64,000 nt of DNA from Bacteroidota bacterium (GCA_030833525.1 JAURGZ010000002.1:3927-67926), one strand, 5' to 3'. Positions 20,563 to 43,900 are shown, counted from the stretch's first letter. Program-made: numbers and translations. The notes: a model not told the origin generated them from the sequence alone.

Positions 20563-20572
20563 TGGGCTTCGC

Positions 20573-20580
20573 AAAGGTAC
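20573..20580 (-). promoter_or_regulatory. -7 promoter box TACCTTTG, 10 nt upstream of the type-B CTD gene's ATG
   Basis: Minus strand reads GTACCTTTGCGaagcccaATG. Confidence 0.4.
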
Positions 20581-23294: not shown

Positions 23295-24611
23295 TTATCG
23301 AACTTCTCGAATCCAGACTTGCGGCACTAAACCCTCGAAGTAGTACATGCTCTTGTTGGCGTCTTTCTCAGAGCCAAAGTGCTTCACAAATACATAGAAG
23401 CTCTTGTTCTTTGGATCGTACATTTTGTAAGCAATGACATCTTTCTCGTACAAATCTTTGATTTGTTTATTGGCCTTGGCTTCGCTGCTGTGCAAGCCCA
23501 CGACCAAATAGAATCCAGGAGCTGAAGCTACTTTTTCCAAATCAGGCAATTGAATGCCGCTGGTATCGTATCCCAAACCGAAGTTTTCCAAATCTTCCAG
23601 ACTGCGAATCACCGCTTCTTTGCGTACAGCAGCCCCGCCAATTCCCTGATCTTCGTCTAAAGAACCAGAACCTGAACCGTCGCCACTGCCATCGCCGCGA
23701 ACACCGCCGCCCAAAGCCGCAAAGCCCAAGTTCAATTGAAACTCATGCGAGGGGCCCAAGGCTAAGCGAGAAGCCCCACTGGGCGTATTGTACGAATAGC
23801 TAAACTGCATATCGTCTTGGGGTTTGAAGCCCAGATTCGCGCCAATTTGGCCCAAGTTGTTGGCCCCTGCGCCAAACCAGAACATATCTTGGTACCACAA
23901 GCTCACGTTACCTTGAAACAGGTAATAGCTCCAATCGTACGCGTATACATGCAAAGCGGGCTTCAACAACATTTCTGAACCCACCTCAGCTTGGAAACCC
24001 ACCAAGAAATTAGCCTGGGATTGCATATCGTAAGCGGCCGTATAGTTGTAATATGAATAATCAAAGGTGGGCTTAGGCAAACGCGACAAAGAAGCACCTG
24101 CAAACCAATTATCTCCCTTGGCATACATAGAGGCGCGCAGGTCAGCGCGAGTCACAGCCGGTGAAAAGATCAAGGCCTTGATGATAGGGTCATTGTCGTG
24201 CACATAAATCGCCTTAGAGGGGTCAAAGCTCTGGCGCAAGGCACCCACGCTGACTCCCAAAGAAAGGTCGGCAGCATTGCCCAACCCGATGGTATAGGCA
24301 TAGGTGGCATAGGTGTTGTGTGTCTCGGCAAAGCCGTAACGTTCACGCATGTAATAAATGCCAAAGCCTGTATTCTTAGAAGCCATGGGCATGTTGACAT
24401 TCATGACACTGTGCTGGGGGCTTCCGGGCACGTCGGAGAACATTTTGTTGTGAAACAGACTCAAGCCGCCCATTTCCATGTTTCCAACCGCTGCTGGAAT
24501 GATCGAAGCGTGATCCATGTAAAACTGATCCAAGCGAACTCCCATTTGGGCGTTCAAGGGAAGGCCAAGCGCCAAACCCATCAAAGCAATTGTGATTTTT
24601 TTCATGTTCAT
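23295..24611 (-). CDS. PorP/SprF-family T9SS outer membrane protein with a C-terminal SPOR-like peptidoglycan-binding domain
   Basis: N-terminal PorP/SprF-like beta-barrel region (MKKITIALMGLALGLPLNAQMGVRLDQFYMD...). Then a Gly/Ser/Asp linker (GGGVRGDGSGDGSGSGS) and a C-terminal ~75-aa region (GFYLVVGLHSSEAKANKQIKDLYEKDVIAYKMYDPKNKSFYVFVKHFGSEKDANK) resembling SPOR. Confidence 0.65.
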   Translation of the reverse strand: MNMKKITIALMGLALGLPLNAQMGVRLDQFYMDHASIIPAAVGNMEMGGLSLFHNKMFSDVPGSPQHSVMNVNMPMASKNTGFGIYYMRERYGFAETHNTYATYAYTIGLGNAADLSLGVSVGALRQSFDPSKAIYVHDNDPIIKALIFSPAVTRADLRASMYAKGDNWFAGASLSRLPKPTFDYSYYNYTAAYDMQSQANFLVGFQAEVGSEMLLKPALHVYAYDWSYYLFQGNVSLWYQDMFWFGAGANNLGQIGANLGFKPQDDMQFSYSYNTPSGASRLALGPSHEFQLNLGFAALGGGVRGDGSGDGSGSGSLDEDQGIGGAAVRKEAVIRSLEDLENFGLGYDTSGIQLPDLEKVASAPGFYLVVGLHSSEAKANKQIKDLYEKDVIAYKMYDPKNKSFYVFVKHFGSEKDANKSMYYFEGLVPQVWIREVR

Positions 24612-24616
24612 GGGTA

Positions 24617-27600
24617 TTAGCGAATGACTTGGATATAACCGCGGAACTGTTCTCCCGTAAATCGGTTTTTCATGTAGTAGAAATAAATACCATCAGGCAA
24701 AGTCTCACCGTTCATATCAACGGCAGACCAATCGTTTTGGTAATTGGAACTCTGGTAAATCAACTTGCCCTGACGATCGTGAATGTCAATGTCGTACAAG
24801 AACAAGTCTGCCAATTCGATCAAATCCCAAGCGTCGTTCTGACCGTCATTATTGGGCGTAATCAAATTCGGGATTTTCAAGATGGGAGGATCAATGACGG
24901 TCACCAATACAGAGTCGATGTCTGCGCATCCGTTGGAGTCCAAACTATTCAAGTAATACATGGTGGTAGACAAGGGTCTAGCCGTAACCACTGCTTGAGT
25001 GGAGTCATCCAAAGTATTTCCAGGAGACCAAGTAAAGTTCGTTGCCCCACTTGACCACAAAGTGGCGTATTTGCCGCGGTAAATGGTCGTGTCGCTGTAA
25101 GCATTCACTTGTGCGGGCGGGAAAGCCAAAATTTGAACCGAATCTTCGGTGTAACATACAGCACCGACCGAGTAAGCCCTCACTTTGTACCAGCCTTTGT
25201 TGTAGAAACTGCGCACACGCGCCACACTGCTGTCTTTGAGCCAACTAATGCTGTCTCCTCCAATGACCGTCACTTCCAAACTATCGCCTTTGCACAGCGG
25301 TAGCGATCCGTTGTACGAGAAGCTCAAGTCGGGCTTCTGAATGAAGCTCAAGCTTTGGCGAGCGGTATCTGAGCATCCGGCGTCGCTCGTCAACACATAG
25401 GTCACGTCAATAGGACCTACGTTATCGATGTACACCACGGGGCTATCGAGAGACGAAACGGTTCCATTTCCAAAATCCCACAACTTGTAGATGATGGGAT
25501 CTACAGAAGTGCTAGCTGTGTCGTAAAAGTAAATGCTATCGGGAACGCAGATGCCTTCAGTATAGAATTGGGCCACAGGCGAATTTGCCACGGTGTAGGT
25601 TCTGAACATGCTGTCGGCGCAGCCGTGTATGTTTTGAGCAAACAGACGCAGGGTGTAAGTACCGGCAGCCGGGAAAATGTGATCGGTAGAAGTGGCCGGC
25701 AATTCGGTGGTTCCATCGCCAAAATCCCAAGAGGTAAAGCTCATGGTGTCATCAGCATCAAACAATTCTTCTTTGACAAAATAGAAATGGTTCTCATTGA
25801 AACACTGGGTTGAATCGTTAGGCGTCACCAAGGGATCTAAAAAGAAACTCACCTTAGGCAGGTAATATACCCGAATTTGCTCTACCGCTGAGTCTTTGCA
25901 GCCCTCGTTTGAGGTCGCAATCAAGGTCACATCGTGGGCACCAGGGGTATTGAAACCCTTCTTCACCATGGTATCAATGTACTGGGGAGGTGTTTGGTCA
26001 ATGACCCAGTTGTAGATGATTTGGTTGTCGGGAATGGTGGTTGATTTTTTGCGGCGCATGACCGTAGTATCGCCCAAACAAACCTGCTTGGTTGTAAAAG
26101 AAGGCTGAGGTTTTGGATGCACTTTGATCCAATAAGAAGCTGTGTCTTCGCAACCGTCTGTCGTAATGACCTTCAAGGTCGCCTTGTAGGTACCGACTGC
26201 GGCATATTGGTGCGTGGTATTGGGGTAAGTTGAATCGTTGGCAGAGAAATCACCGAAGTTCCACACGTAAATATCGGCTACGGTGTTCTTCAAGTTTGTC
26301 TGATCGTTCGTATTGGTTACCTCGTCCAAGCAGGTGTGGCTGAGGGTAAATTTGGCATCGGGAATGGCATTCACCGTATGGTAGTACTCGGTTGAATCGA
26401 CGCAGCCAAAATCAGAAGTTACCTTCAATTTGATGATGTACACACCGGGTGACGGGTATTTGTAAGCGATGTTTTTATTCAGGTTGTTGGTGATGTTACC
26501 CGTTAGCTTGGGGCTTCCATCTCCACGATCCCATTCCCATGTCTTCACTTTGTCTGGCGCGGGATCTTGAGTGCCGTTGGAATAGAAAGACGTTTTACCA
26601 AAGCAAATGGGATCGCCTCCCGGAGGGAAGTTGATCGCCGGCGCGGGCAAGGAATGCACCAAGTAATCCAAACTATCAATGGCTTTGCAACCCAAGGCAG
26701 TGGTGCGAGTCAAATAAATCTTGTAGTTGCCACCGGCGGCATAAATGTGATTGATGGTTTGAGCAGTCGAAGTGGTCAAATCACCCAAATCCCATTTGCG
26801 CGAGAAAATACTTTCGGGCGAAGGGGGCGTATACGTATCGATGAACAAGGAGGTATCGCCTACGCAAACTCCATTGGTATAGATGTTTTTGTTGAACATC
26901 ACCGTGGGCAATACACCCACGCGAAGGTTGTAGCTAAAGGTATCTTCATCGGTGCTATTGCCTACAATCAAGGTGACGGTATAGTTGCCATAGGCAGCAT
27001 ACTTGCGAAAAATCTTAGCTGGAATACCGGTATTGGTATAAGTCAAGGTATTGCCATCGCCGAAGCTCCATTTCCAATATGTAATGGGAGAAGCGGTACT
27101 CTTCGACAAATCGGTAAAGAAAAATGTATCGCGCTCGCAACGACCCTTGGCCAATTCAAACTTGGAAAACGCATTGGTACTTCCCAATACGTTGACGCCG
27201 TTCTTGACGTTGGCCAGAACAAAAGTCATTTGGGTTTGAAAGGTATTGGTCGCAATTTGGCCTTTTCGATTGGCAGATCCCATGCCGCCGAGATCCACCC
27301 AAGAACCGGCAGGAGCATGACCTAAAATGCGTAAAAAGTTTGCCTCGTATACTTGGTCGTCAGCGGTCACAGAATCATATGAGGCCGTCAACTCAAAATT
27401 GTTTGACGTCCCTGTGGGCAACAATCCCAATTCCCAATAGTGGACCTTTGAAATGTTGCGAATGCCCGTGGGCAATGCCCCTCCCGTTGATGGACCTCCA
27501 CTTTTCACTTCCATGCGGTAGTAAACCAAGCCACTCACCGTCTTATTGAAATTGAGCTGCGTATAGCGGTAGTCTTGGTTGACTCCAATGGGAAAATCCA

Positions 27601-28105
27601 AACTGGTAGCACCGCTGGTCAAACCGATCCAAAGGGCTCCTTTGACAAAACTATTCTTGCTGCCACCCAAGCGCTGAGCACCCGCCATGGTGCGAAAGGC
27701 TTTAGAACCCGTGGTGCTAATGTGGCCCAAGGTCAATTCCAAGGTGTCTTTCACATCGAGGGTATCGCCCGAAACCGTCAAGGTTACACCCGAACCATTC
27801 ATGTGCAAGCTGCGCACTTGAACATTGCTCGAACCGCTGCTGCTCACGGCAAACTCGAGCGACTTGCTCAGGGTAATGGTTTCAGAATAAACTCCGTTGG
27901 AAATGTTAATGACATCGCCAGAAGATGCGATGGCCATGGCTGCATTGATGGTCTTTTTGGGGCCGGTAGTTCCACTGACAAAAGTGGCCGAGGTCCCATC
28001 ATAAGAATCGCTTCCAGAGGTGGAAACATACCATGATGCCCCGAATACCGAGGAGGCTCCCACCCAGCTCAAAAACAAGGCGAGAATTCTAAGTTTTATA
28101 TTCAT
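24617..28105 (-). CDS. Large cell-surface adhesin-like protein with tandem PKD domains and T9SS type-B C-terminal sorting domain
   Basis: 1162 aa. Signal peptide. N-terminal beta-helix-like region (SGDVINISNGVYSETITL). Repeated WxFGDGxT PKD motifs. C-terminus ITPNNDGQNDAW...IYQSSNYQNDWS...GYIQVIR matches the type-B CTD. Immediately upstream of PorP/SprF. Confidence 0.75.
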   Translation of the reverse strand: MNIKLRILALFLSWVGASSVFGASWYVSTSGSDSYDGTSATFVSGTTGPKKTINAAMAIASSGDVINISNGVYSETITLSKSLEFAVSSSGSSNVQVRSLHMNGSGVTLTVSGDTLDVKDTLELTLGHISTTGSKAFRTMAGAQRLGGSKNSFVKGALWIGLTSGATSLDFPIGVNQDYRYTQLNFNKTVSGLVYYRMEVKSGGPSTGGALPTGIRNISKVHYWELGLLPTGTSNNFELTASYDSVTADDQVYEANFLRILGHAPAGSWVDLGGMGSANRKGQIATNTFQTQMTFVLANVKNGVNVLGSTNAFSKFELAKGRCERDTFFFTDLSKSTASPITYWKWSFGDGNTLTYTNTGIPAKIFRKYAAYGNYTVTLIVGNSTDEDTFSYNLRVGVLPTVMFNKNIYTNGVCVGDTSLFIDTYTPPSPESIFSRKWDLGDLTTSTAQTINHIYAAGGNYKIYLTRTTALGCKAIDSLDYLVHSLPAPAINFPPGGDPICFGKTSFYSNGTQDPAPDKVKTWEWDRGDGSPKLTGNITNNLNKNIAYKYPSPGVYIIKLKVTSDFGCVDSTEYYHTVNAIPDAKFTLSHTCLDEVTNTNDQTNLKNTVADIYVWNFGDFSANDSTYPNTTHQYAAVGTYKATLKVITTDGCEDTASYWIKVHPKPQPSFTTKQVCLGDTTVMRRKKSTTIPDNQIIYNWVIDQTPPQYIDTMVKKGFNTPGAHDVTLIATSNEGCKDSAVEQIRVYYLPKVSFFLDPLVTPNDSTQCFNENHFYFVKEELFDADDTMSFTSWDFGDGTTELPATSTDHIFPAAGTYTLRLFAQNIHGCADSMFRTYTVANSPVAQFYTEGICVPDSIYFYDTASTSVDPIIYKLWDFGNGTVSSLDSPVVYIDNVGPIDVTYVLTSDAGCSDTARQSLSFIQKPDLSFSYNGSLPLCKGDSLEVTVIGGDSISWLKDSSVARVRSFYNKGWYKVRAYSVGAVCYTEDSVQILAFPPAQVNAYSDTTIYRGKYATLWSSGATNFTWSPGNTLDDSTQAVVTARPLSTTMYYLNSLDSNGCADIDSVLVTVIDPPILKIPNLITPNNDGQNDAWDLIELADLFLYDIDIHDRQGKLIYQSSNYQNDWSAVDMNGETLPDGIYFYYMKNRFTGEQFRGYIQVIR

Positions 28106-32539: not shown

Positions 32540-35500
32540 TTAACGGGAGCGAAATGTGTGAAATTCGCGGCGGTAAATCGCGCCGGCCCCTAAGGTATTC
32601 CCACTCACTCCGTTGCCGATGGAGCCTGATCCACTTTGGTCCAGCAACAGATTGCTGCTGCGCGAAAAGGCCTTCAATTTCCAGTCTTCGTTGCGGGTCA
32701 TGTACTCCAAATTGAAGTTGAAAGGAACAGCGAGGTTGTTCACGAGCATGCTCACCGTAGGGTCGTAATTGAGATCCAAGCGAAGGCGATCGCTCAGGAA
32801 CCATTCTGAATTCACAAATACCTGCGTATTGCTGTTGCCCGATGCATTTCGCACATCGTCTATGTTCACTTGAATTCGGGTGGGAACTCCATATTTGGCA
32901 AAGAGGTCATTGACCACGCTAGAGGCAATCGTGGAAACTGAATTTCCCGCCACCCCTGCCCCGCTGAGCATATTGGTCTCCAGTGAATTTCCCGATAGAA
33001 ACGACGGCGGAATGAAATTTCCAAACAGCAACAAGGCTACCGCTTGGCGCATGGTTTCATCTTTATCGCTGCGAATGCGCTGAATGACCGCATTGGCCTC
33101 GTTGGCTGAAGCCGTGGCCGAACTGGCCAAGTCGGGTGCTAAAATATCGAATTCGATGGTGGGCCTAATCAGACTCCCGGAAAGCTTCAATACCGAAACA
33201 ATGCGAGTGGGTGCCACCGCTGAGGCAGAAGGCGTACCTGTTAACAAGGCCACCGGTGAAATCTTTTTCTCGTAGTGACCCACCATTTGTATGTCGGCGT
33301 TGTAGGGATCGCCGGTCCAAACGATGCTTCCACCCGGATCCAGAGTGACACGCTTGGTCAATACGTTGATACCCGGGATGGAAAATACATACTCTCCATC
33401 TTGAAGCTCTAAAGAACCGTACAAGAAAAACTGCTCTTGTTCATCGTAGAGCATGCGTAAGGTCCCTTTTCCATGGCCACGAATGGCATCACCCAACTGT
33501 TTATCGATGACAAATTGAGCATCCAAATCGGGATTGGCATGAACCACCACATTCACTCGATTCAGATAATCGCTGCTGGTTTCACTTGGCTCTTCAGCGG
33601 GCTTCTCGCCTTTGCTTGCAAATCGAATGGCTCCCGATACTTCGTTGTAGTTATCGGTTTCGTACAGAATGGTCAGTTCGCTGTTTTTTCTTGGAGTTAA
33701 ATCGATGTCCATGTCCAAGGCGGTCAAAGGTCCGTGAACCCGAATGCGACCATCGGCCCACGCCGTACCATAAAACAAGTCATTGTCTCGAGCCGTGGTG
33801 TTTAAGACCTTCAAATTTCGAGCACTATCGAGCCTCAGGTCTAAGCGCAGATTATCATAATCCTGATGCTGCAGCTTCAAAGAGCCCCATGCATAATTCA
33901 AGCGAGACTCATCCGTGACCCGAAACGGACGTGCACTTGAAATGCCGCGGTTGTCAATTTCAAAATCAGCCGTTGTGTAATAACGGGTCCCTAAGTAATC
34001 GACCTTGGCCCCCAAATTCTTGGCGCGCACTTGACCCTCAATTTGGGCTTCTCCTTGCAGCGAATAACTGTGCAAAAAGCCACTCAAATAACCCGTTTCC
34101 AGCGTCAGTACACCCTGAAACAAGGGTTGCAAAACCTGGACAGGAGTGGTCTTGGGCAATTCGGCATACAAATCCCAATTGTACTCATCTTGGGCGTAGC
34201 CGCTGATGTCAACTCCCCCATACAACTCTATGCCCTTCAAGGGACCCGATTCAGAATCAACGTTGATCGACAGCATCTCATGTGTCTTGTGTTGCACCAC
34301 TTTCAAACCCAAGTTTCCATAATCGTGTTGATTCCAACGCACATCGTTTACCGATACATCGGCGCTGAGTTTAGCCCTGCCTAGCAAAGCAATTCCCTTG
34401 ATTTTACCCATGGCATGGCCGTCTAAACTATCCAGCACATGTTCAGCCAAAAAAGGCTCCAAGATTTCAGGCGTAAGGTTGTAAAACTCAACCACGGCGG
34501 TGTCGCTGAGCTCAGCCCCTATGCGACCCTTCAATTCAAAATAGTGTTCTCCATCGCTCAGGGCTAAACGCCTGATATCCAAAGCCCCACTGCGCTCGAT
34601 GCGTATGCGAGCCGAGGTATCCATGACCCATTGCTTGTCGTACAAACGCAAATGACTCGAATCGACGCGTGTACTGATGAACTCTGGGGTTACTCGAGTT
34701 CTCAAATGAGCATTGACCGCGTAGCGATTTTTCAAATCGTGAACCCAAGCATGGGTTCTCCAAACCTGGTCCTGGGCGGTCATTTGAAGGCCCCAATCGT
34801 CGTATTCGGTTCTTCCCACCCGCATGTACTTAGACGCCAAACTCAAGGTCCATGATTCGGTTGCACTGCGTTGAGCTTCGACTTGAACCCCTTCCATTTG
34901 AAAGCCTGCCCATTCCAAGTGAATGGCCCCTGTTTTCAAGGCAAATTGATTGCCGGGGCGAACGCTTAAACTCCATTCAAAGGGGTCCATTTGGGCTCCC
35001 GGAAATACAAAATGCTCCAACCAATCAGTTTGAAGAACTGCAAATGAAGCTTCAAAGCTGTCGCTTGGGCTGTGAATGGGGGCGGCAAATCGCTGCGGAA
35101 CCGCATCGTGCAACCAAGCTTGAATCAATGCTTGGCTCTGACTAGGCTGAAAACGCCCGCGAATTTTCCCTTGAATGGCATCACCCTCCAGGTTCCATGC
35201 CAGGGCTCGAGGTCGGCTCAATTTCTGGCGATTCACGTGCAAGGCCGAACCATTGTGCAGCCAATCCAAATTGCGAACCAACACCTGCCCCTCAAAAGCA
35301 TCGATATCAAAGCTCTTGCCTTCGATCTCCAATTGCGTGCTCAAAATCGATGGCAGAGAATCCCAGCCCAAAGCCTGCAAATCGCAGGCCAAGAGATTGG
35401 CACTTAGGCTCCATGTGGGGAGATCCAGCATATCTTCAACCTGCAACCAAGCTTCATGGGTCAAAAAGGGGTCTCGGCATTTCCACTGACCTTTAGCCGA

Positions 35501-37018
35501 AGACTGAGTGAGCGCGAGTTCGAGTTCAATGTCATGTACATCTTTGTTCATGAGCTGAAGGCTTTCCAGGCTGCCTTCTACATCGACCACCATGCGCGGG
35601 CCGGGCACATCTCGAAAGCGCCCCAACAGTTGACCTTGCAACAATCCAAGGCGTGAATCGCCTAGAGCGAATCCGGCGTCGAACGATTGAAGAGAGGCTG
35701 AAAACTCGCTCCATTCGCTGTTCAAATCATAAGCGTACCAACCGTTGAACTGCCCTTTTCCACTGTTGACCGAACCTTGCACATACAGCTCTTGAGCGTC
35801 GAGATCAAAGTTGGCGTCGGCCACCCAAGCCCCCCAAGAGGCCAATTCACCCACCCACGATTCACCGGGGAATAAGGGCTCCAAGTCACTGGGAACCAGC
35901 TTGGAGTCGGCCAATTCGATGCGGTGCACCAAGGAATCTGCATAGGGCAAGCCTCTCAAATAATAGGTACCGTTGAGGTTCGTACCCTGGCCTAGGTTGA
36001 GCGAAAATCCAGGTATCTCCAAATTCCCCAAGGGGCCCTCAAAAGAAGCCAACATCGAAATCTTACCGTTGCGGTGATCAAACCATTCATGGAAATAAGC
36101 CAGATCCTGGGTGCAGATTTCAGCCTCTTCGACATCTCCCATCCAGAGCATGTATTCAAACACGCTATCCAGGGCATATTCGTGGCGATAATCCAAATCC
36201 ATGAGCCACTTCACCTGTGAACAGGGAGTGCGCAATTCAGAATTTCGGAAACGCAAGAACTGGGGCCTTACATTCAAATCGGTTTTGAATTCTTGCACGA
36301 ACAAACCCGAACGTTCTTGAGTACTCAAGCGCTCTATGTGAAATTGTGGGTCGCCTGCCGAGTCAGAAAAACAGGGGCCGGTCAGCAACTTGACGGCCTG
36401 AAAATCCATGTATTCGGGGGCAAACCTGCCCGCCGTCAACCGAGTCGAATAGGCCTCTTCTTGCAACAAACTCAAGCCTGTCTCGCGCAAATCAAAGTAG
36501 CGAAAACGCCCCCCGTCGATGCGAATCTCTTGGATGTACCAGGACCATGCCGGGCCTGAACCACCCGAGGAAACGCTCAAGCGATCCAAAATTTGTTGAT
36601 AGTTATTGCCTTCTGAACCGCTGTGAAAACCCATGCTGAGCTGCAATGCTCGGGCGTTCACCTGCCGAATTCGAATCTGGCGATCCCACCAATTGATGCG
36701 GGATAACGCTACATCCAAACTGGGCAACCACAGCAATGTATCGCCCTGCACATCGGTTACAGAAAGATCTTCCAGGTGAAAATTTCGAAGGAAATCAACC
36801 TGAACCAATCCCACAGACACAGGGGTTTGCAGGTATGCCGAGACCTGCTTCATGACCCAATCGGCCAAGGCATTTTGCACCAAGCGATTTCGGGTGGCTA
36901 CGGCGAAGGCCGAAAGCAAGAACAAGCCCCACAAGAGGGCCGACAGCGCTTTCTTCCTTATTTTTGAATCGCGTAAAGCCAAACCAACCAAAATTAAATC
37001 CCGGCCTGAGGCTTCCAT
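32540..37018 (-). CDS. tamB: Translocation and assembly module protein TamB (AsmA-like, DUF490)
   Basis: About 1490 aa. Single N-terminal TM (ALSALLWGLFLLSAFAVA) then a long beta-rich periplasmic region. tamB-tsaD adjacency is conserved in Bacteroidota. Start taken at ATG 37018 so that the TM helix is included; the ORF track extends to 37138. Confidence 0.75.
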   Translation of the reverse strand: MEASGRDLILVGLALRDSKIRKKALSALLWGLFLLSAFAVATRNRLVQNALADWVMKQVSAYLQTPVSVGLVQVDFLRNFHLEDLSVTDVQGDTLLWLPSLDVALSRINWWDRQIRIRQVNARALQLSMGFHSGSEGNNYQQILDRLSVSSGGSGPAWSWYIQEIRIDGGRFRYFDLRETGLSLLQEEAYSTRLTAGRFAPEYMDFQAVKLLTGPCFSDSAGDPQFHIERLSTQERSGLFVQEFKTDLNVRPQFLRFRNSELRTPCSQVKWLMDLDYRHEYALDSVFEYMLWMGDVEEAEICTQDLAYFHEWFDHRNGKISMLASFEGPLGNLEIPGFSLNLGQGTNLNGTYYLRGLPYADSLVHRIELADSKLVPSDLEPLFPGESWVGELASWGAWVADANFDLDAQELYVQGSVNSGKGQFNGWYAYDLNSEWSEFSASLQSFDAGFALGDSRLGLLQGQLLGRFRDVPGPRMVVDVEGSLESLQLMNKDVHDIELELALTQSSAKGQWKCRDPFLTHEAWLQVEDMLDLPTWSLSANLLACDLQALGWDSLPSILSTQLEIEGKSFDIDAFEGQVLVRNLDWLHNGSALHVNRQKLSRPRALAWNLEGDAIQGKIRGRFQPSQSQALIQAWLHDAVPQRFAAPIHSPSDSFEASFAVLQTDWLEHFVFPGAQMDPFEWSLSVRPGNQFALKTGAIHLEWAGFQMEGVQVEAQRSATESWTLSLASKYMRVGRTEYDDWGLQMTAQDQVWRTHAWVHDLKNRYAVNAHLRTRVTPEFISTRVDSSHLRLYDKQWVMDTSARIRIERSGALDIRRLALSDGEHYFELKGRIGAELSDTAVVEFYNLTPEILEPFLAEHVLDSLDGHAMGKIKGIALLGRAKLSADVSVNDVRWNQHDYGNLGLKVVQHKTHEMLSINVDSESGPLKGIELYGGVDISGYAQDEYNWDLYAELPKTTPVQVLQPLFQGVLTLETGYLSGFLHSYSLQGEAQIEGQVRAKNLGAKVDYLGTRYYTTADFEIDNRGISSARPFRVTDESRLNYAWGSLKLQHQDYDNLRLDLRLDSARNLKVLNTTARDNDLFYGTAWADGRIRVHGPLTALDMDIDLTPRKNSELTILYETDNYNEVSGAIRFASKGEKPAEEPSETSSDYLNRVNVVVHANPDLDAQFVIDKQLGDAIRGHGKGTLRMLYDEQEQFFLYGSLELQDGEYVFSIPGINVLTKRVTLDPGGSIVWTGDPYNADIQMVGHYEKKISPVALLTGTPSASAVAPTRIVSVLKLSGSLIRPTIEFDILAPDLASSATASANEANAVIQRIRSDKDETMRQAVALLLFGNFIPPSFLSGNSLETNMLSGAGVAGNSVSTIASSVVNDLFAKYGVPTRIQVNIDDVRNASGNSNTQVFVNSEWFLSDRLRLDLNYDPTVSMLVNNLAVPFNFNLEYMTRNEDWKLKAFSRSSNLLLDQSGSGSIGNGVSGNTLGAGAIYRREFHTFRSR
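36959..36966 (+). promoter_or_regulatory. -7 promoter box TATTTTTG, about 58 nt upstream of tsaD, lying inside the tamB 5' coding region
   Basis: Matches TAnnTTTG. Orientation and position are consistent with tsaD transcription. Confidence 0.3.
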
Positions 37019-37024
37019 CCACAC

Positions 37025-38023
37025 ATGTACCGCTATTCCACCATATTGGGCATAGAGAGCAGTTGCGACGACACCTCGGCTGCTGTATGGCAAAATGGCA
37101 AAATCCTTGCCAATGAAACGGCGGGGCAGCCGGTGCACGAAGCTTGGGGTGGAGTCGTACCCGAATTGGCTTCACGCGCCCACCAAAGCCACATTCTGCC
37201 GGTCATTCAACACGCCTTAAACCGCGCTGGAATTGGCCTTGAACAACTCGATGCCATAGCCTGTACCCAAGGGCCGGGCTTGATGGGCTCGCTCATGGTA
37301 GGGTGGAATACCGCCAAAGGCCTTGCATTGGCTCTGCAAAAACCCTTGATCGGAGTGCATCATTTGCAGGCGCATGTAGCCGCTTTGCATTTGGAACACG
37401 AGGTAAAATTCCCCTTGTTAACCCTGCTGGTCAGCGGTGGGCACACCCAATTGTTGTGGATACCCGAACCCGGTCGCATGCAGATAGTCGGCGAAAGCCA
37501 AGACGATGCAGCTGGTGAAGCTTTTGACAAGGCTGCCAAGCTCCTGAATTTGGGTTACCCAGGCGGGCCTCACATCGATCGATTGGCCTCTGGGGGCGAC
37601 CCCAAAGCCTTTAGCTTTCCAGACAGCCAAACGCCCGACTTGGGATTTAGCTTCTCAGGCATCAAGACCAGTTTGTTGTATTTCTTGCGAGAAGCCCAAA
37701 AGGAGAATCCCCAATTCGCCCAAGATCGACTGGCCGACATTTGCGCCTCTTACCAGGGGCAGGTGGTGAGCAGCCTGCTAAAGCGGGTTAAAAAAGCCAT
37801 TCAGCTGTACCAACCGGCCTCTATGGGTTTGGTGGGCGGTGTTTCAGCCAATTCTGAGCTGCGCAGGCGCTTCACCGAATTGGGGATTTCCAAACAAATT
37901 CAAGTCTGCATTCCTTCCTTCACCTATTGCACCGACAATGCCGCCATGATTGCCCAGGCAGGATCCATGCAATTGGAACAGGGAGAAAGCACCCCCTTGT
38001 CTGCCCTGCCATTCGCTCGTTGA
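37025..38023 (+). CDS. tsaD: tRNA N6-adenosine threonylcarbamoyltransferase
   Basis: ILGIESSCDDTSAAV N-terminus, HLQAHV/GHxxLL motifs and GG-SANS C-terminal motif of Kae1/TsaD. 332 aa. Confidence 0.9.
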   Translation: MYRYSTILGIESSCDDTSAAVWQNGKILANETAGQPVHEAWGGVVPELASRAHQSHILPVIQHALNRAGIGLEQLDAIACTQGPGLMGSLMVGWNTAKGLALALQKPLIGVHHLQAHVAALHLEHEVKFPLLTLLVSGGHTQLLWIPEPGRMQIVGESQDDAAGEAFDKAAKLLNLGYPGGPHIDRLASGGDPKAFSFPDSQTPDLGFSFSGIKTSLLYFLREAQKENPQFAQDRLADICASYQGQVVSSLLKRVKKAIQLYQPASMGLVGGVSANSELRRRFTELGISKQIQVCIPSFTYCTDNAAMIAQAGSMQLEQGESTPLSALPFAR

Positions 38024-38099: not shown

Positions 38100-38999
38100 A
38101 TGGATGCTTCTACCTTGATGAACGGCATACGGCAAGGCGATCAGCGCGCCTTGGCGCGCGGCATCAGTTGGGTAGAAAATCAGCACCCTCAGGGCCTGGA
38201 GTTGCTGAAGTTGACAGGCAAAAAAGTGCCTCTCATTGGCATAACGGGAGCCCCGGGAGCTGGCAAGAGCAGCTTGGTCAATGCCTTGGTTAGCCATTGG
38301 GTAAGCAAGGGTTACCGCGTGGCCATCTTGGCCATTGACCCCTCATCTCCCTTTCATTTAGGAGCCTTGCTCGGCGATCGGCTGCGCATGCCTGGGCTGT
38401 TTTTGGAAGAATCGGTTTTCATTCGAAGCATTGCCGCTCGCGGATCTTTGGGCGGGCTCAGCGCCAGCATCATGGAGGTCTGTGATTTGGTCCAAGAAGG
38501 CCCTTTTGATCGCATCATCGTTGAAACCGTTGGCGTTGGACAAAGCGAGATTGAAATCGCCGGATTAGCCGATACCACCCTGGTCCTCACCGTTCCAGAA
38601 GGAGGCGATGATGTACAAGCCCTCAAAAGCGGCGTCATGGAAATTGCCGATGTTTTTGCAGTAAACAAATGCGACAGACCGGGCTCAGAGGCCATGCTGC
38701 GTCATTTGCGCGAGCTGGCTCATACGCATGCCCAGTCAAGTTGGGAAGTGCCTGTTATTGGAACAGTAGCCACTCAAGGAGAAGGCATTGAGGCCTTGGA
38801 TGAAGCCCTTGAATCGCACCGCAAATCAGGACATATTTCAGCCAAGAAGCAGCATTTGCTCATGGAAAAGGCCTATCAGCTCATTCAGCGCAACCGCATG
38901 CGCGGTGTTCACAAAGAAATTTTAAAGAAACAATTGGCCTCTGCTCAAACAAAGCCCGGGTTTAATTTGTATGATTTTGTGAACAATTACGACGCATGA
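38100..38999 (+). CDS. meaB: MeaB/ArgK-family G-protein chaperone (methylmalonyl-CoA-mutase-associated GTPase family)
   Basis: P-loop GITGAPGAGKSSL. Switch motif ETVGVGQSE. NKCD guanine-specificity motif. 299 aa. Confidence 0.8.
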   Translation: MDASTLMNGIRQGDQRALARGISWVENQHPQGLELLKLTGKKVPLIGITGAPGAGKSSLVNALVSHWVSKGYRVAILAIDPSSPFHLGALLGDRLRMPGLFLEESVFIRSIAARGSLGGLSASIMEVCDLVQEGPFDRIIVETVGVGQSEIEIAGLADTTLVLTVPEGGDDVQALKSGVMEIADVFAVNKCDRPGSEAMLRHLRELAHTHAQSSWEVPVIGTVATQGEGIEALDEALESHRKSGHISAKKQHLLMEKAYQLIQRNRMRGVHKEILKKQLASAQTKPGFNLYDFVNNYDA

Positions 39000-39574
39000 A
39001 CATTGCCATTCTCAGCACTTCTTCCAGAGCTCATTCCAATACAGCCCGTGTAGGAAAAGCCATTGAGCACTACTTTGAGAACCATCCCGAAAAGCACCTC
39101 ATTTTCAGGCCTGACTTCACCCAATACGACATTCCATTTTTCAATGAAGCCTACCTGGACCCCCAAAAGCTCAGTTCTTTTCAGCAAGAAGTAGTGGATG
39201 CACTTACCCAGAGCCAATTGGTCTTTTTCTTATCGCCCGAATACAATTGGTTCCCCAGTGCTGAAGCGGTGAATTTATTGCACCAATTGGGCAACCGTAT
39301 ATTCTTGTCCTGTTGGGAAAACAAAACCTGGGCAACCGTAGGAATTAGCAGCGGTCGAGGCGGTCGAATTCCATCCGTTCAACTGGGCTATGTTTTGAAT
39401 AAAATCATCGGGCATCTCGGAGCATTCAGCCAAGTGTCAGCGAAAAACTTCGAAAGTCAATTCACACCGCATGTCTTGGATGAACAAGGTCTTTCCCTTG
39501 GAAATCAAGAATACGACCAAGGATTGGAGTCCTTCTTGATCTACAATTACGAACTCGCGAAAAGATTAGGCTAA
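38996..39574 (+). CDS. NAD(P)H-dependent FMN reductase-like flavoprotein (flavodoxin fold)
   Basis: MNIAILSTSSRAHSNTARVG N-terminus typical of NADPH-dependent FMN reductases. ATG overlaps the meaB TGA (ATGA). Confidence 0.65.
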   Translation: MNIAILSTSSRAHSNTARVGKAIEHYFENHPEKHLIFRPDFTQYDIPFFNEAYLDPQKLSSFQQEVVDALTQSQLVFFLSPEYNWFPSAEAVNLLHQLGNRIFLSCWENKTWATVGISSGRGGRIPSVQLGYVLNKIIGHLGAFSQVSAKNFESQFTPHVLDEQGLSLGNQEYDQGLESFLIYNYELAKRLG

Positions 39575-39579
39575 ACCGC

Positions 39580-42048
39580 TTAGGGCTTGATCAACACAGT
39601 ACCCTGCCCTTCAATGGACAACCAGTACAAGCCCGGTTTCAAAGCTGAAGCAGAAATGCTCATTTGTTTGGAGAGGGCAACCCCTTCTTGGCAAATTTGA
39701 CCTTTGGCGTCAAACAAAGTCCAGGTCCGGGCGCGGTTGTTGCCGAATGTCACGTTCCAAATTTCAGAACTGGGATTGGGATAAACCTCAAAAGCCAAAG
39801 GCGTCATGTCGGTGCGGCTCGCCAACAAATCAGCTAAGGTAACCGTACAAACACCCGATGATTCCAAGAATCGCGAATCAAAATCAACCCAAGCGATGTT
39901 GTCTATTTCTTGATTGAGACTCAGTTTTTGGGTCAAATCGACTTGATATTCCACGAAACCGCCAGCCGACGCACTGTTGCTTTCCAACGAAGACAAATTG
40001 GCTTCAGGAAACTCTACCACCAAAATGCGCCCTTGAACAATGCTCAAATTAGCTTTCAAGGGATAGTGATTCGTCACCAACAATCGCTTCAGGGGCAGAT
40101 TGGCGTCTAGGGTATCGATCATGACCGCGCGTTTCACAAAACCGCTGGAGGTATTCAGGAAGTCTACGCGGTAATTCCATGAAGTAAGTCGGTAATCAAT
40201 CGTTTCCCCGCCTTGGCTCTTTTTGCTCACAGATGGAGGCAATTGGCCACCCTCTGCAGGCCCCATGAGCAAGGTATCTTGGTTATCAGCCGCCCATTTG
40301 TCGTCTTTGGTAAAGAAACTGCCCACGTGAATCTGCACAGATTTGGGCGATCCTGTTTCGGCATCGGGGGCAATTTTCAGTTCTGCCTCATACACCATTT
40401 TAGCAAAAGGAGCCAGATTGACCAGCGTAAAGACGGCTTGACTACCATCGTAGTTGCTAGGACTGGGATTGCTTTGGAACTGGGTCAAAGCGGCATCGTG
40501 CTGAACATGCAAGGTAGGACCTGTCAAGGTAGACGCACCGTGGTTTTGAGCCACAATCAGGAAACGTGCCGACTCCCCTGCCTGATTCGTTTGAGGACTC
40601 AAAGGCACCAAATGCACTTCCAAGTCTTGGATGCTGGGCTGCTGGTAATAGCCCAAGCTGGTAGAAGCATACATGCCCTGACGAATGCGGGAAGTTTGGT
40701 TGTTGGAACAAACCGAATATAAATGGCGACCTGGCTGCAAACTGATTTGATAATCGCCAGCCGGCAAGGCTACCGAGAAATGCCCTTGGTCATCAGTAAT
40801 GGCAAAAAAGATGGAGCCCGTCGCTTTGTTTTCCAAGCGAATGGGACAAGTGGGAATGCCGACTTCACTGCTTTCTTTGCTGCAATTGGAGTTGGCATCG
40901 AAATACACATCTCCCACCAAATTACCTGCTTCGTTTTCCAAATTAGAGAAATAGCGAATGCCAGTATTTTGTTCTGTAAAATCGCCCCATATGAAAGCAT
41001 CATCGCCGCGTTGACCCAATTGAAAGGTCCCCGAAATGCGATTTCCTGTTAAAGCCAAGGCACCTGATTCATAGCGAATCAAAGAAGATCCGTTACCGTC
41101 TTTTTCGAACTGGCCGCCAATCATCAAATAGTCGGGCGCACCGGCAATGGTTCGGGGTTCAGCGATGCTGAAGGAATCGAATCCCAATGCATCTGACCAC
41201 CCTGTACCGATAAACTTACGAATCTCGTAATCACTACTGGCACTCTGGCCCAAAGCGTAAATCTCTGTGCCGACTGTCGCAAAATCAAGAACTTCACCGC
41301 TGAAGGGCGAACCGATCCCGCCCCATTCACCGTTGGAAGCCGTGTAATAAGCGATGTTCCCGGTAAAAGTGCTGGCAAAATATTGAAAATCACCGGCGAT
41401 GTACAAGCGAGAGCCCAAAACCAATAGGCTCTTGATGGTTCCATCGGTGCCTTGTTCTGAGCTTGAACTTCCCAAATAGGACCAACTCGTCCCGTCAAAG
41501 GCAGCGATGTTTTGAACGTCTACACCGTCTACCTGATTGGTAAAACGACCGGCCACAATCAACTTATTGTCGTAAACGGTCATGGCCATGATGCCATAAT
41601 TGGTCGATGCGATCCCATTCACTTGAAGCCACTGGTTGTCGTCCCAACGGTACAAATGGCTAATGGCCGTGGTGGCATCTTGCGCTGCCCCCGCAATGTA
41701 AGCGGCGGCATATAAGGTATCGTGGTACAAAACCACGCTGTGGAAATTGTAACTGCCTTGGGTGCCTTCTACCAATGGTGGGGTCGTCAGACCTGGGAAA
41801 TAGGTCCAGTGCACACCGTCCCAAGAGGCGGCGGTAAAGTCATTGTTATCAGGGGTAGACGTTTCATCGAAGAGCACGACATACTCGTTGCCCGCCGCGT
41901 ACGATGCTACAACCTTACCGGGTACACCATTCCCCAGCGGTTGTAGCACCTGCGCATTGGCCCCCATTGTCCAAACGCAAGCAAGCAGGAAAAATCCGAG
42001 CTTACTCATGCCTAGCAAGATAGGGTTGATGAAACACAATTTTCTCAT
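39580..42048 (-). CDS. Secreted repeat protein with T9SS type-A C-terminal sorting domain (Por secretion tail)
   Basis: Signal peptide (FFLLACVWTMGANAQ). Repeated beta-propeller-like segments (YAAAYIAG, IVAGRF, YIAGDF, MIGGQF). C-terminus YPNPSSEIWNVTF...LFDAKGQ...LKPGLYWLSIEGQ matches the type-A CTD. ATG at 42048 overlaps the upstream TGA. Confidence 0.7.
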   Translation of the reverse strand: MRKLCFINPILLGMSKLGFFLLACVWTMGANAQVLQPLGNGVPGKVVASYAAGNEYVVLFDETSTPDNNDFTAASWDGVHWTYFPGLTTPPLVEGTQGSYNFHSVVLYHDTLYAAAYIAGAAQDATTAISHLYRWDDNQWLQVNGIASTNYGIMAMTVYDNKLIVAGRFTNQVDGVDVQNIAAFDGTSWSYLGSSSSEQGTDGTIKSLLVLGSRLYIAGDFQYFASTFTGNIAYYTASNGEWGGIGSPFSGEVLDFATVGTEIYALGQSASSDYEIRKFIGTGWSDALGFDSFSIAEPRTIAGAPDYLMIGGQFEKDGNGSSLIRYESGALALTGNRISGTFQLGQRGDDAFIWGDFTEQNTGIRYFSNLENEAGNLVGDVYFDANSNCSKESSEVGIPTCPIRLENKATGSIFFAITDDQGHFSVALPAGDYQISLQPGRHLYSVCSNNQTSRIRQGMYASTSLGYYQQPSIQDLEVHLVPLSPQTNQAGESARFLIVAQNHGASTLTGPTLHVQHDAALTQFQSNPSPSNYDGSQAVFTLVNLAPFAKMVYEAELKIAPDAETGSPKSVQIHVGSFFTKDDKWAADNQDTLLMGPAEGGQLPPSVSKKSQGGETIDYRLTSWNYRVDFLNTSSGFVKRAVMIDTLDANLPLKRLLVTNHYPLKANLSIVQGRILVVEFPEANLSSLESNSASAGGFVEYQVDLTQKLSLNQEIDNIAWVDFDSRFLESSGVCTVTLADLLASRTDMTPLAFEVYPNPSSEIWNVTFGNNRARTWTLFDAKGQICQEGVALSKQMSISASALKPGLYWLSIEGQGTVLIKP

Positions 42049-43298
42049 GGGCGGCCTCCTTTCAAAGACCAAATCAACTGGGTACTCAAACCCGCAGACC
42101 ACGCATGGGCCTTGACGGCAGAACCCGCTTGATACAAAGGCGTCATAGCGCCTTGCATATTTCCAAGAATGGACCAACTCAAACCCGGGCGCAATTCACG
42201 CTCCCAACCGGCGGCCACTCGAGCCGACAAGAACCAGGTTTGGAATGCATCGTCAGACCAATCTTCCAAAGTCAAATAATGGTAATTCAAGGTTTTTCCA
42301 CCCTGCCCCGAAATGAGGTTGGCTTGCAGTTGAGCATCCATGACCCAGTTTCCATGTCGACCCGCTTCAGGACGGAAAGACAACCCTATAGGAATGCTCA
42401 AGAAATTCAAGGTGCTTTGGCCTTGGTATTGCACCCTTGGCCCCGGACTGAGGTAACCGAAAATGGGATAATTCCCAAAGGCATCGGCAACCGTTCCAAC
42501 CGCTGAACTGGCGGGCATGCTATCTTGAAAATCAAAAGACTGGCCACGGCGATTTTGCGCCCAAGCCAAACCCGCGTGCAAGCGTAAATGTTCTTGAATA
42601 TCGCGTTGAACGGAAAAAGAAAGGCGAGCGCTTTGCAAACTAAATTCGCCTTGCTGCACGCGATCAAAATAATTTTTATGTATGTAGGAAGAACGCACAG
42701 GAACGGCCGAATACAGAATACCTGTTTGGTTTTGGTCGAACCCGACCTCGAGATACCAGGGACCTTTATCAGATCGCTGCGAATCTCGAGGTGCGGATAC
42801 CACCAATTGATTCTGTAAAAACGGTTCCAAGCGAAACACTCGAATGGATAAGGCCTTGGAATAAGGTTCGAAAACAGGAGGCAAAAGCCCCTGGTAAACC
42901 TCACCTACCCCTGAGGTAGATGCCAAGGAAGAAGAAGGAAAAGTTGAAGGAATAGGTGCGCGGTACAAACCCACATTAGCCTCATGCTCAGCACTACCCG
43001 CAGAAACCGATTGTTCTGGGGAAGGCGCTATCACCGGGCTCTGGGATTCAACCAATGCAGGGCCTTGGGCACCTGATTCGCTCACTGCGCTCGAGGAAAC
43101 GGAGTGGCTAGCCACCCAAACCCCCAAACTCACCACGGCGATGCTCGCAGCAGACACCCATGCCCACAAGGGGAAGCGGCGCTTACGAGCATCCATTTTC
43201 GCCTCAATGGCCTCCCACATTTCGGGAGCAGGCGTAAGTTCAACTCCTTCGAGTTGTTGCTTCAGCCATTCATCGATATGCGAATTGTCGCGGTTCAT
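42045..43298 (-). CDS. Putative anti-sigma factor: short cytoplasmic N-terminus, one TM helix, Ser/Pro-rich linker, ~250-aa beta-rich C-terminal domain
   Basis: ATGA-coupled directly downstream of the ECF sigma factor. TM segment WAWVSAASIAVVSLGVWVA about 45 aa from the N-terminus. The C-terminal domain has alternating hydrophobic patterning. The anti-sigma role is assigned from context, not from a recognised motif. Confidence 0.5.
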   Translation of the reverse strand: MNRDNSHIDEWLKQQLEGVELTPAPEMWEAIEAKMDARKRRFPLWAWVSAASIAVVSLGVWVASHSVSSSAVSESGAQGPALVESQSPVIAPSPEQSVSAGSAEHEANVGLYRAPIPSTFPSSSLASTSGVGEVYQGLLPPVFEPYSKALSIRVFRLEPFLQNQLVVSAPRDSQRSDKGPWYLEVGFDQNQTGILYSAVPVRSSYIHKNYFDRVQQGEFSLQSARLSFSVQRDIQEHLRLHAGLAWAQNRRGQSFDFQDSMPASSAVGTVADAFGNYPIFGYLSPGPRVQYQGQSTLNFLSIPIGLSFRPEAGRHGNWVMDAQLQANLISGQGGKTLNYHYLTLEDWSDDAFQTWFLSARVAAGWERELRPGLSWSILGNMQGAMTPLYQAGSAVKAHAWSAGLSTQLIWSLKGGRP

Positions 43299-43900
43299 TT
43301 CTTTCTTTTCTTCAGTTCTTCTTTCAGCATTTTCCGCCCGCGGCTCAGCAAGGTTTTGGCGTTCCCTTCGCTGACCCCCATCAGCTCAGCAATTTCTCGG
43401 TGAGGCAATTGGTCAATGGCGTAGAGGTTCAATACCGTTGCGTAGGTCGGTGGCAAGGCGTGCAAGCAAGCCAACACCTCAGAGAGTTCCAAAACCGGCA
43501 GCGGCTCAGAAGTCTCTTCTTCTGACAACTGATCCGACTCTGGCAACTCTTGAAACTGTGGGCCGCTTCGCTCTTTGCGGTAACGACTTAGCGCCAAGTT
43601 GATGAACACCCGGGTCATCCATCCTTCCAATTGCTGGGGATTTTTTAGGGCAGAAATGCTGTCAAAGACCTTGATGAAACCGTCTTGCAGCAAATCTTGC
43701 GCGTCATCCGTATTCCCGGAGTAGCGCAAGCAATGTCCAAACATTTTGGGGGCGAAGCGGTCGTACAAAGCCTTTTGGAATTGACGATCGCCTTTGATAC
43801 ACCCAGCTATGAGGACATCGTTGCTGATCAAGGGTTTCGGATTAATGACGCAGAAAGTAGTAAAGGTTACAAAAAAATATAGCGAACGCGAAGAAAACAT
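43295..43900 (-). CDS. RNA polymerase ECF-type sigma-70 factor
   Basis: Region 2 (FQKALYDRFAPKMFGHCLRYSGNTDDAQDLLQDGFIKVF) and region 4 HTH (ATVLNLYAIDQLPHREIAELMGVSEGNAKTLLSRGRKMLKEEL). An alternative TTG start at 43831 would give a typical 178-aa ECF protein. Confidence 0.8.
   Translation of the reverse strand: MFSSRSLYFFVTFTTFCVINPKPLISNDVLIAGCIKGDRQFQKALYDRFAPKMFGHCLRYSGNTDDAQDLLQDGFIKVFDSISALKNPQQLEGWMTRVFINLALSRYRKERSGPQFQELPESDQLSEEETSEPLPVLELSEVLACLHALPPTYATVLNLYAIDQLPHREIAELMGVSEGNAKTLLSRGRKMLKEELKKRKK

Follow-up and report, generated by a model that had tools for sequence, protein, structure and literature searches.

Do the products of three overlapping genes, a sigma factor, a membrane protein and a secreted protein, work together as one signalling unit? 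This question is raised by a locus at positions 39,580-43,900 of a 64,000-nucleotide (nt) stretch of DNA from a Bacteroidota bacterium (GCA_030833525.1, JAURGZ010000002.1:3927-67926; hereafter the window). Three minus-strand genes are chained there, encoding an extracytoplasmic function (ECF) sigma factor, a 417-amino-acid (aa) protein with a single transmembrane (TM) helix, and an 822-aa type-A cargo of a type IX secretion system (T9SS). The original prediction, made from the sequence alone, proposed that the middle protein is an anti-sigma factor and that the triad is a self-contained envelope-signalling module. Our analysis revealed that the middle protein is most likely an anti-sigma factor of the Dma (dual membrane-spanning) type. 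The locus as a whole probably encodes an autoregulated trans-envelope sigma/anti-sigma switch, with the surface protein as the dedicated output of its operon.

The middle protein

The full-length middle protein matched no family in Pfam or NCBIfam. Modelling with AlphaFold2 (AF2) from a family alignment gave a cytoplasmic N-terminus of about 41 residues followed by a single TM helix, a disordered linker rich in Ser and Pro, and a confident all-beta domain at residues 181-414, with predicted local distance difference test (pLDDT) scores mostly of 70-92. This bears out the anti-sigma-like topology noticed before. The N-terminal 41 residues contain the motif HIDxxLxxxLxxxExxPxPxxWxxIxxxxDxxKRR, which leads directly into the TM helix, and they are 35% identical to homologues, as against 17% in the linker. 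Homologues have a hydrophobic segment, their hydropathy maximum, at the same place as the helix. The linker, or tether, is composed to 62% of S, P, T, A, G, Q and E, and varies in length from 23 to 174 aa. Over 100 representative proteins of Bacteroidota have the motif, as HIDxxLxxxLxxxExxPxPxxWxxIxxxLDxxKRR, with the TM helix behind it, and barrel-like C-termini are frequent among them. In some proteins (among P0104, P0156, P0185 and P0124) the motif ExxPxxxxWxxIxxxL is tandemly duplicated before the TM helix. P0124, which at 1257 aa is about three times as long as a typical family member, carries the motif at its N-terminus. These variants suggest a modular anti-sigma module that is widely reused in Bacteroidota.

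For the C-terminal part, scans of homologues with profile hidden Markov models and structure prediction led to an outer-membrane beta-barrel. The best fold matches of this domain were 8-stranded outer-membrane barrels, with PagL, OmpA, OprF-N, CarO and OmpW also found, and Foldseek agreed. Homologues at about 30-40% identity carry PF13568 (OMP_b-brl_2); when the aligned family members were scanned singly, 32 of 41 matched PF13568 and 27 of 41 matched PF13505. A profile search (72-sequence alignment, 8000 candidates scored) returned mostly proteins of the same clade, with Aequorivita and Mucilaginibacter proteins among the matches listed; it did not extend as far as Bacteroides. A sequence search of the PDB with the family profile gave nothing significant. 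The beta-rich domain of about 240 aa had been described as of unknown type, either resembling an outer-membrane barrel or forming a beta-sandwich sensor. The first alternative held, on the fold matches and the PF13568 homologues, but the beta-sandwich was ruled out by the fold; nor is the type unknown, as this architecture has already been published and characterised as the Dma family. We also discarded a FecR-type reading of the middle protein, in which no FecR, Plug or TonB_dep_Rec match was found, and a PorP/SprF-type reading of the barrel, in which PF11751 was not matched.

According to Pardue et al. (PNAS 2024, PMC10927553), Dma1 (BT_4721) of Bacteroides thetaiotaomicron binds sigma through its N-terminal region, which is followed by a TM helix, a long stretch of disorder and an OMP_b-brl_2 barrel of eight strands. 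Its gene adjoins that of the ECF21 sigma factor Das1, and Dma1(1-40) is sufficient for pull-down of Das1, with equivalent binding reported for Bacteroides fragilis (PMC10927553). Full-length Dma1 is found in membranes and only C-terminal fragments in outer-membrane vesicles (OMVs), and reported family members are spread over the whole of Bacteroidota and restricted to it (PMC10927553). The window protein, matched to Dma1 and its relative Reo by their described architecture and not by sequence, has the same cytoplasmic N-terminus of about 40 aa, single TM helix, long disordered tether and small C-terminal barrel of the OMP_b-brl_2 type, and it too is confined to Bacteroidota. Its gene lies directly downstream of an ECF sigma gene in the window and in all loci where the contig allows this to be seen, as do those of 4 out of 4 more distant Dma-like proteins with examinable loci (Aequorivita marina, Mucilaginibacter glaciei and two others). 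By analogy with Dma1, the N-terminal 41 aa would be the part that binds the sigma factor.

Alternatively, the middle protein might be only an outer-membrane protein with a long N-terminal signal-anchor or pro-region, and its adjacency to the sigma gene a matter of co-expression. In agreement with this, no recognised anti-sigma domain (zf-HC2, RskA or FecR) was detected in it with Pfam and NCBIfam, and the cytoplasmic part is too short for the four-helix domain of class-I anti-sigma factors. However, Sec signal peptides have n-regions much shorter than these 41 charged residues. These residues are also better conserved than the linker and carry a motif that follows an ECF sigma gene wherever the locus can be examined, and equivalent N-termini of 40 aa bind sigma experimentally in B. 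thetaiotaomicron and reportedly in B. fragilis. We consider this alternative highly improbable, and a Dma-type anti-sigma factor the most likely identity of the protein.

Conservation of the triad

The two overlaps first described, at 43295-43298 and 42045-42048, were both seen in the sequence; at each junction the downstream ATG shares its TG(A) with the upstream stop codon. The 4-nt overlap of the sigma and anti-sigma genes is also present in the orthologous locus L001, and that of the anti-sigma and cargo genes in L001 and L003 as well as in the divergent triads L058 and L060. Across the orthologous loci the first two genes mostly overlap by 4, 8 or 38 nt, or are separated by gaps of at most 24 nt. 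TTG is the start codon of the sigma gene as well as of the Dma-like gene in most orthologues (L004-L054), whereas the anti-sigma gene begins with ATG in the window and its closest relatives. Overlaps of 4 nt between genes on the same strand are common and carry little weight alone.

The triad arrangement is nevertheless more than chance, because its order is conserved across loci. We recovered 47 genome loci with the barrel motifs, all from metagenome-assembled genomes (MAGs) of uncultured and, by isolate names, largely freshwater Bacteroidota. In all of them, and in the metagenome contigs examined, the order sigma factor, barrel protein, cargo is kept wherever the contig reaches. Within the main clade the sigma factors are 44-57% identical, the barrel proteins 24-43% and the cargos 44-53%, with higher values in close relatives; the neighbouring genes are those of the window (YchF, E1 dehydrogenase, MeaB, TsaD and TamB). 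A second, unrelated neighbourhood has acetyl-CoA carboxylase and MBOAT genes on one side and GT9 and YceI genes on the other, and its loci hold those full-length orthologues of the cargo that diverge most (37-39% identity). These are preceded by a sigma factor of 176-180 aa and a protein of about 450 aa, with the 4-nt overlap in two of the three loci. The latter protein is homologous to the window barrel (28% identity by BLASTP; hhalign probability 99.3%). The description of the locus as a self-contained module thus gains support, the triad being strictly conserved in both genomic contexts.

More distant relatives do not keep this association. Among the examined loci, looser relatives of the barrel protein retain the sigma gene and have no cargo, and a looser protein with propeller, DUF7619 and C-terminal sorting domain stands alone, outside any such pair. 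Since looser barrel and cargo relatives occur apart, the linkage of the cargo is specific to this subfamily and under selection.

The sigma factor gene and its promoter

The first gene was confirmed as that of an ECF sigma factor. Its product matches Pfam Sigma70_r2 (PF04542) and Sigma70_r4_2 (PF08281) and scores 80.9 bits with TIGR02937 (cutoff 42.9). With regions 2 and 4 only and about 180 aa, it has the composition that defines ECF (group IV) members of the sigma-70 family. It is 38% identical to the sigma factor beside the Dma-like protein of Aequorivita. A placement in the PG0214/GFO_1088 family of NCBIfam was dropped, its score being below the cutoff.

The three open reading frames (ORFs) extend over 43295..43900(-), 201 aa from an ATG, 42045..43298(-), 417 aa, and 39580..42177(-). 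For the sigma gene, a TTG start at 43831 had been suspected, and this start is indicated by the sequences: orthologous sigma genes are called at 176-184 aa, and a CTTG start block is invariant in an upstream alignment of 100 nt from 18 diverse loci. The 201-aa ORF was dropped in favour of this conserved start, its ATG lying upstream of the promoter. The protein is 178 aa long on this evidence, and what had been read as an N-terminal extension is predicted to be promoter and leader.

AAC at -35 and CGT at -10 are the classic signature of ECF promoters. The upstream consensus consists of a T-run and TG(C/T)AACC, a 14-nt spacer, CGTCAT, about 15 nt and the TTG; TG-AACC and CGTC do not vary in any of the 18 diverse orthologous regions aligned, although their flanks diverge. 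Every main-clade locus that covers this DNA has the motif, some 41 nt upstream of where the sigma gene begins, and the divergent triads have the version TGCAACC-N14-CGTT. It was not found at the cargo-less Dma loci. Only one strict match is present in the 64-kb window, where about one is expected by chance, and therefore the weight of the motif rests on its conservation. Most likely, the promoter is recognised by the operon's own sigma factor, which would make the operon autoregulated. A scan for promoters and terminators gave counts not above those in shuffled sequence, covering the sigma-70 consensus only, to which Bacteroidota-type promoters are invisible. An Rfam scan found no match, and so no riboswitch or leader. 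The practical gains are a corrected start of the sigma gene and a promoter motif with which the regulon can be sought in related genomes.

These data bear on a further alternative, in which the sigma/anti-sigma pair is a general envelope-stress system like EcfO/Reo with a large regulon, and the cargo a syntenic passenger expressed mainly from its own promoter. The regulons of EcfO and Das1 do include distant genes such as nigD, and a promoter of the Bacteroidota type would have escaped our scan. In contrast, the 4-nt overlap leaves no intergenic space for a promoter before the cargo gene, and the cargo stays attached in a different neighbourhood. Strict matches to the ECF-type motif, single in the window, are otherwise rare in the loci flanking triads. 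We give the passenger explanation very little chance of being right.

The cargo protein

The third gene was confirmed as a T9SS type-A cargo by two sorting-domain models that exceed their cutoffs at the extreme C-terminus (Por_Secre_tail PF18962, 34.5 vs 27; TIGR04183, 31.7 vs 23). The 865-aa ORF with a TTG at 42177 was dropped for a conserved ATG (Table 1). Among 40 cargo orthologues, conservation begins at A32-Q33-V34-L35, which fits cleavage by signal peptidase after ANA. DUF7619 was found in the stalk (38.6, cutoff 27), with sub-threshold Pfam matches to SdrD_B, DUF11, and the Rax2 and DUF5122 propeller families. The AF2 model (pLDDT 86.5; predicted template modelling score, pTM, 0.78) has a beta-propeller head on a stalk of immunoglobulin (Ig)-like domains. 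Its best Foldseek matches were integrin alpha-chain ectodomains (E about 4e-16); their template modelling scores (TM-scores) are low, and low values are expected where the angles between the domains of a multi-domain chain differ. As modelled, the cargo resembles integrin alpha in overall architecture, with a propeller head and an Ig-like leg, and homology is not claimed.

The window contains two PKD-repeat proteins with type-B (CHU_C) T9SS sorting domains, at 18445-20574(-) and 24617-28105(-). A PorP/SprF-family outer-membrane gene, 23295-24611(-), directly follows the larger of these cargos, the two making up a classic pair of type-B cargo and dedicated barrel. Because this PorP/SprF gene and two CHU_C cargos are present in the same window, the host has a T9SS. 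Judging from its sorting signals, the triad's cargo would cross the inner membrane by Sec and reach the cell surface by the T9SS.

Table 1. Features of the sigma/anti-sigma/cargo locus, with positions counted from the first nucleotide of the window
Feature	Position	Strand	Remarks
ECF-type promoter (predicted)	43847..43871	(-)	T-run, TGTAACC -35 (43871-43865), 14-nt spacer, CGTC -10 (43850-43847)
ECF sigma factor gene, 178 aa	43295..43831	(-)	TTG start at 43831, not ATG at 43900
ATGA overlap, sigma stop / anti-sigma start	43295..43298	(-)	sequence reads aaATGAaccg
N-terminal cytoplasmic module, residues 1-41	43176..43298	(-)	two short helices, 6-16 and 25-36 (AF2); presumed sigma-binding region
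Single inner-membrane TM helix, residues 42-64	43107..43175	(-)	AF2 helix 42-69; preceded by KRR (positive-inside, N-in)
Disordered Ser/Pro/Ala-rich periplasmic tether, residues 65-176	42771..43106	(-)	pLDDT 26-38 (residues 70-176), about 110 aa
Outer-membrane beta-barrel (predicted), residues 177-417	42048..42770	(-)	8 long strands the best reading; loops YxHKNY, GNYPIFGY
ATGA overlap, anti-sigma stop / cargo start	42045..42048	(-)	sequence reads ccATGAgaaa
Cargo gene, 822 aa	39580..42048	(-)	ATG 42048, not TTG 42177; orthologues 805-833 aa, same start
Sec signal peptide (predicted), residues 1-32	41953..42048	(-)	...TMGANA|QV; hydrophobic N-terminus; low pLDDT, helix 16-27
Beta-propeller head, residues ~33-385	40894..41952	(-)	~27 strands, roughly 7 blades (AF2)
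Stalk of Ig-like beta-sandwich domains, residues ~386-745	39814..40893	(-)	SdrD_B/CarboxypepD_reg-like, DUF11-like, DUF7619; Pfam and AF2
T9SS type-A C-terminal sorting domain, residues 755-817	39598..39786	(-)	PF18962, TIGR04183; matches over residues 755-818 of 822

Proposed mechanism

How might the three proteins act together? The three genes would form one operon, expressed as a single transcript from the ECF-type promoter under their own sigma factor. The sigma factor would be held at the inner membrane by the N-terminus of about 41 aa of the anti-sigma factor, whose TM helix would serve as the anchor; the tether of about 110 aa would cross the periplasm, and the small barrel would sit in the outer membrane. 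A disturbance of the outer membrane or of the surface would then cause the anti-sigma factor to be proteolysed and the sigma factor to be set free, by analogy with Dma1 and Reo. Once free, the sigma factor would up-regulate its own operon, including the integrin-like T9SS surface protein. Such behaviour has been described for related systems: the Dma1 orthologue Reo/EcfO of B. fragilis and P. vulgatus reacts to stress at the outer membrane and induces its own operon and nigD lipoprotein genes, and Dma2 belongs to an operon of three genes, das2-dma2-BT_1557, its own target of strongest induction (PMC10927553; PMC13088901; PMC9308784; PMC13114119).

Some points weigh against this proposal. The window barrel has no Pfam match even at E <= 10, where neither the isolated barrel nor the isolated N-terminus gave anything meaningful; its family link rests on homologues and the predicted fold. 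The number of strands (8 vs 10) was read from a DSSP string without coordinates. For the sigma factor, NCBIfam supplied the generic TIGR02937 and no placement in ECF21, the group of Das1. With the best NCBIfam model, NF058625 (PG0214/GFO_1088 family), the window sigma factor reached 91 bits against a cutoff of 130; all 5 other sigma factors tried, including Dma-adjacent ones, were also below this cutoff, and the result is uninformative. Finally, internal promoters of the Bacteroidota type may be present in the locus, our promoter scan having covered the sigma-70 consensus.

The barrel itself raises the question of what it meets at the cell surface. Its length is fixed at 237-241 aa, and 46 columns are invariant. 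In an 8-strand topology derived from the DSSP string and ordinary rules for outer-membrane proteins, about 29-32 of these 46 columns map to distal halves of strands or to predicted surface loops, and the three periplasmic turns are free of them. Invariant clusters in the predicted extracellular parts include YxHKNY, GNYPIFGY and YHYL. Conserved surface loops are the reverse of the variability usual in outer-membrane proteins, and in this predicted arrangement they hint at a conserved surface partner.

One candidate for that partner is the cargo, which, in the main alternative reading, may be input as well as output. After export it would dock on the barrel loops as the ligand-binding or mechanosensing head of a three-part sensor, although we regard this as unlikely. 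In this equally unlikely scheme, binding of a ligand, shear or the cargo's loss would be passed down the barrel, the tether and the TM helix, and the sigma factor would be set free. The conserved loops and fixed barrel length favour such a role. The cargo never parts from the sigma/barrel pair either, even in its most divergent orthologues, which lie elsewhere with the 4-nt overlap kept, and looser relatives of cargo and barrel protein occur without each other. There is also a precedent in PorA, a T9SS C-terminal domain (CTD) protein that relays a surface signal to an ECF sigma factor through PorXY-SigP (PMC7712824). However, constant co-occurrence is equally expected of a mere regulated product, and the orientation of the barrel loops was derived without coordinates. 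Type-A cargos may be released instead of being anchored at the surface, and the Dma proteins of Bacteroides function without any such cargo partner. The switch with the cargo as its dedicated output is the most likely reading.

Comparison with known systems

Anti-sigma factors of the Dma type, first described as recently as 2024, are already in the literature, and so are Dma operons of three genes. Relative to the literature found, what is new is a subfamily with a T9SS type-A, integrin-shaped third gene, a distinctive barrel and a defined promoter. The window triad resembles the Dma2 operon in its order of sigma, dma and downstream gene, and for Dma2 that operon is the main target. In contrast to NigD lipoproteins or BT_1557, the third gene here encodes an integrin-like T9SS type-A cargo that is inseparable from the sigma/barrel pair. 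The barrel represents a distinct subfamily of about 240 aa, with YxHKNY and GNYPIFGY in its predicted surface loops, and the window protein itself is below Pfam detection. The host belongs to an uncultured freshwater lineage, and the role of Dma in OMV production is not implied here.

In the FecA/FecR/FecI systems and the SusC-like transducer systems of Bacteroidota, a surface signal is likewise relayed by an outer-membrane barrel, an anti-sigma factor of the inner membrane and an ECF sigma factor, and the operon also encodes the surface component. Unlike these, the triad has outer-membrane barrel and anti-sigma factor in one polypeptide, and neither a TonB-dependent transducer with a signalling domain nor a FecR domain. 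PorA-PorXY-SigP of Porphyromonas gingivalis (PMC7712824) is similar in that a T9SS CTD surface protein is tied to the activity of an ECF sigma factor. However, it works via a two-component system, controls T9SS structural genes and is not co-encoded with an anti-sigma factor, and PorA has a FimH-like fold whereas the window cargo has a propeller. Pairs of the SprB/SprF type, of which the window has an example at 23295..28105, share with the triad a T9SS cargo co-encoded with its own outer-membrane beta-barrel. The triad differs from them in that its sorting domain is type-A instead of type-B, and its barrel is of OmpA/OmpX size and fused to an anti-sigma module.

Taken together, these comparisons describe a distinct Dma subfamily locked to one integrin-shaped T9SS protein across a lineage of abundant freshwater Bacteroidota. 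The cargo thereby becomes a specific candidate for the role of dedicated output, or for that of input partner, in a Dma-type switch, and the triad links ECF/Dma signalling to type IX secretion outside gut Bacteroides, which to our knowledge have no T9SS. If the cargo should also act as sensor, the locus would amount to a chain of outside-in signalling in a bacterium, and an input would be identified for the first time for an anti-sigma factor of the Dma type.

Surroundings of the locus

Downstream, the stop of the cargo gene (39580) is 5 nt from that of a convergent FMN-reductase-like gene (flavin mononucleotide; 38996..39574, +), a distance that leaves no room there for a conventional intrinsic terminator. 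Triad-bearing MAG contigs (L011, L014, L017, L018, L021, L023 and others) are labelled 'Chitinophaga pinensis' or 'uncultured Rhizobium sp.', labels that are evidently unreliable. A TamB-family protein of 1532 aa is encoded at 32540-37138(-), 2.4 kb from the triad. This proximity is kept in the main clade; divergent triads lack the neighbour, and it is probably mere synteny.

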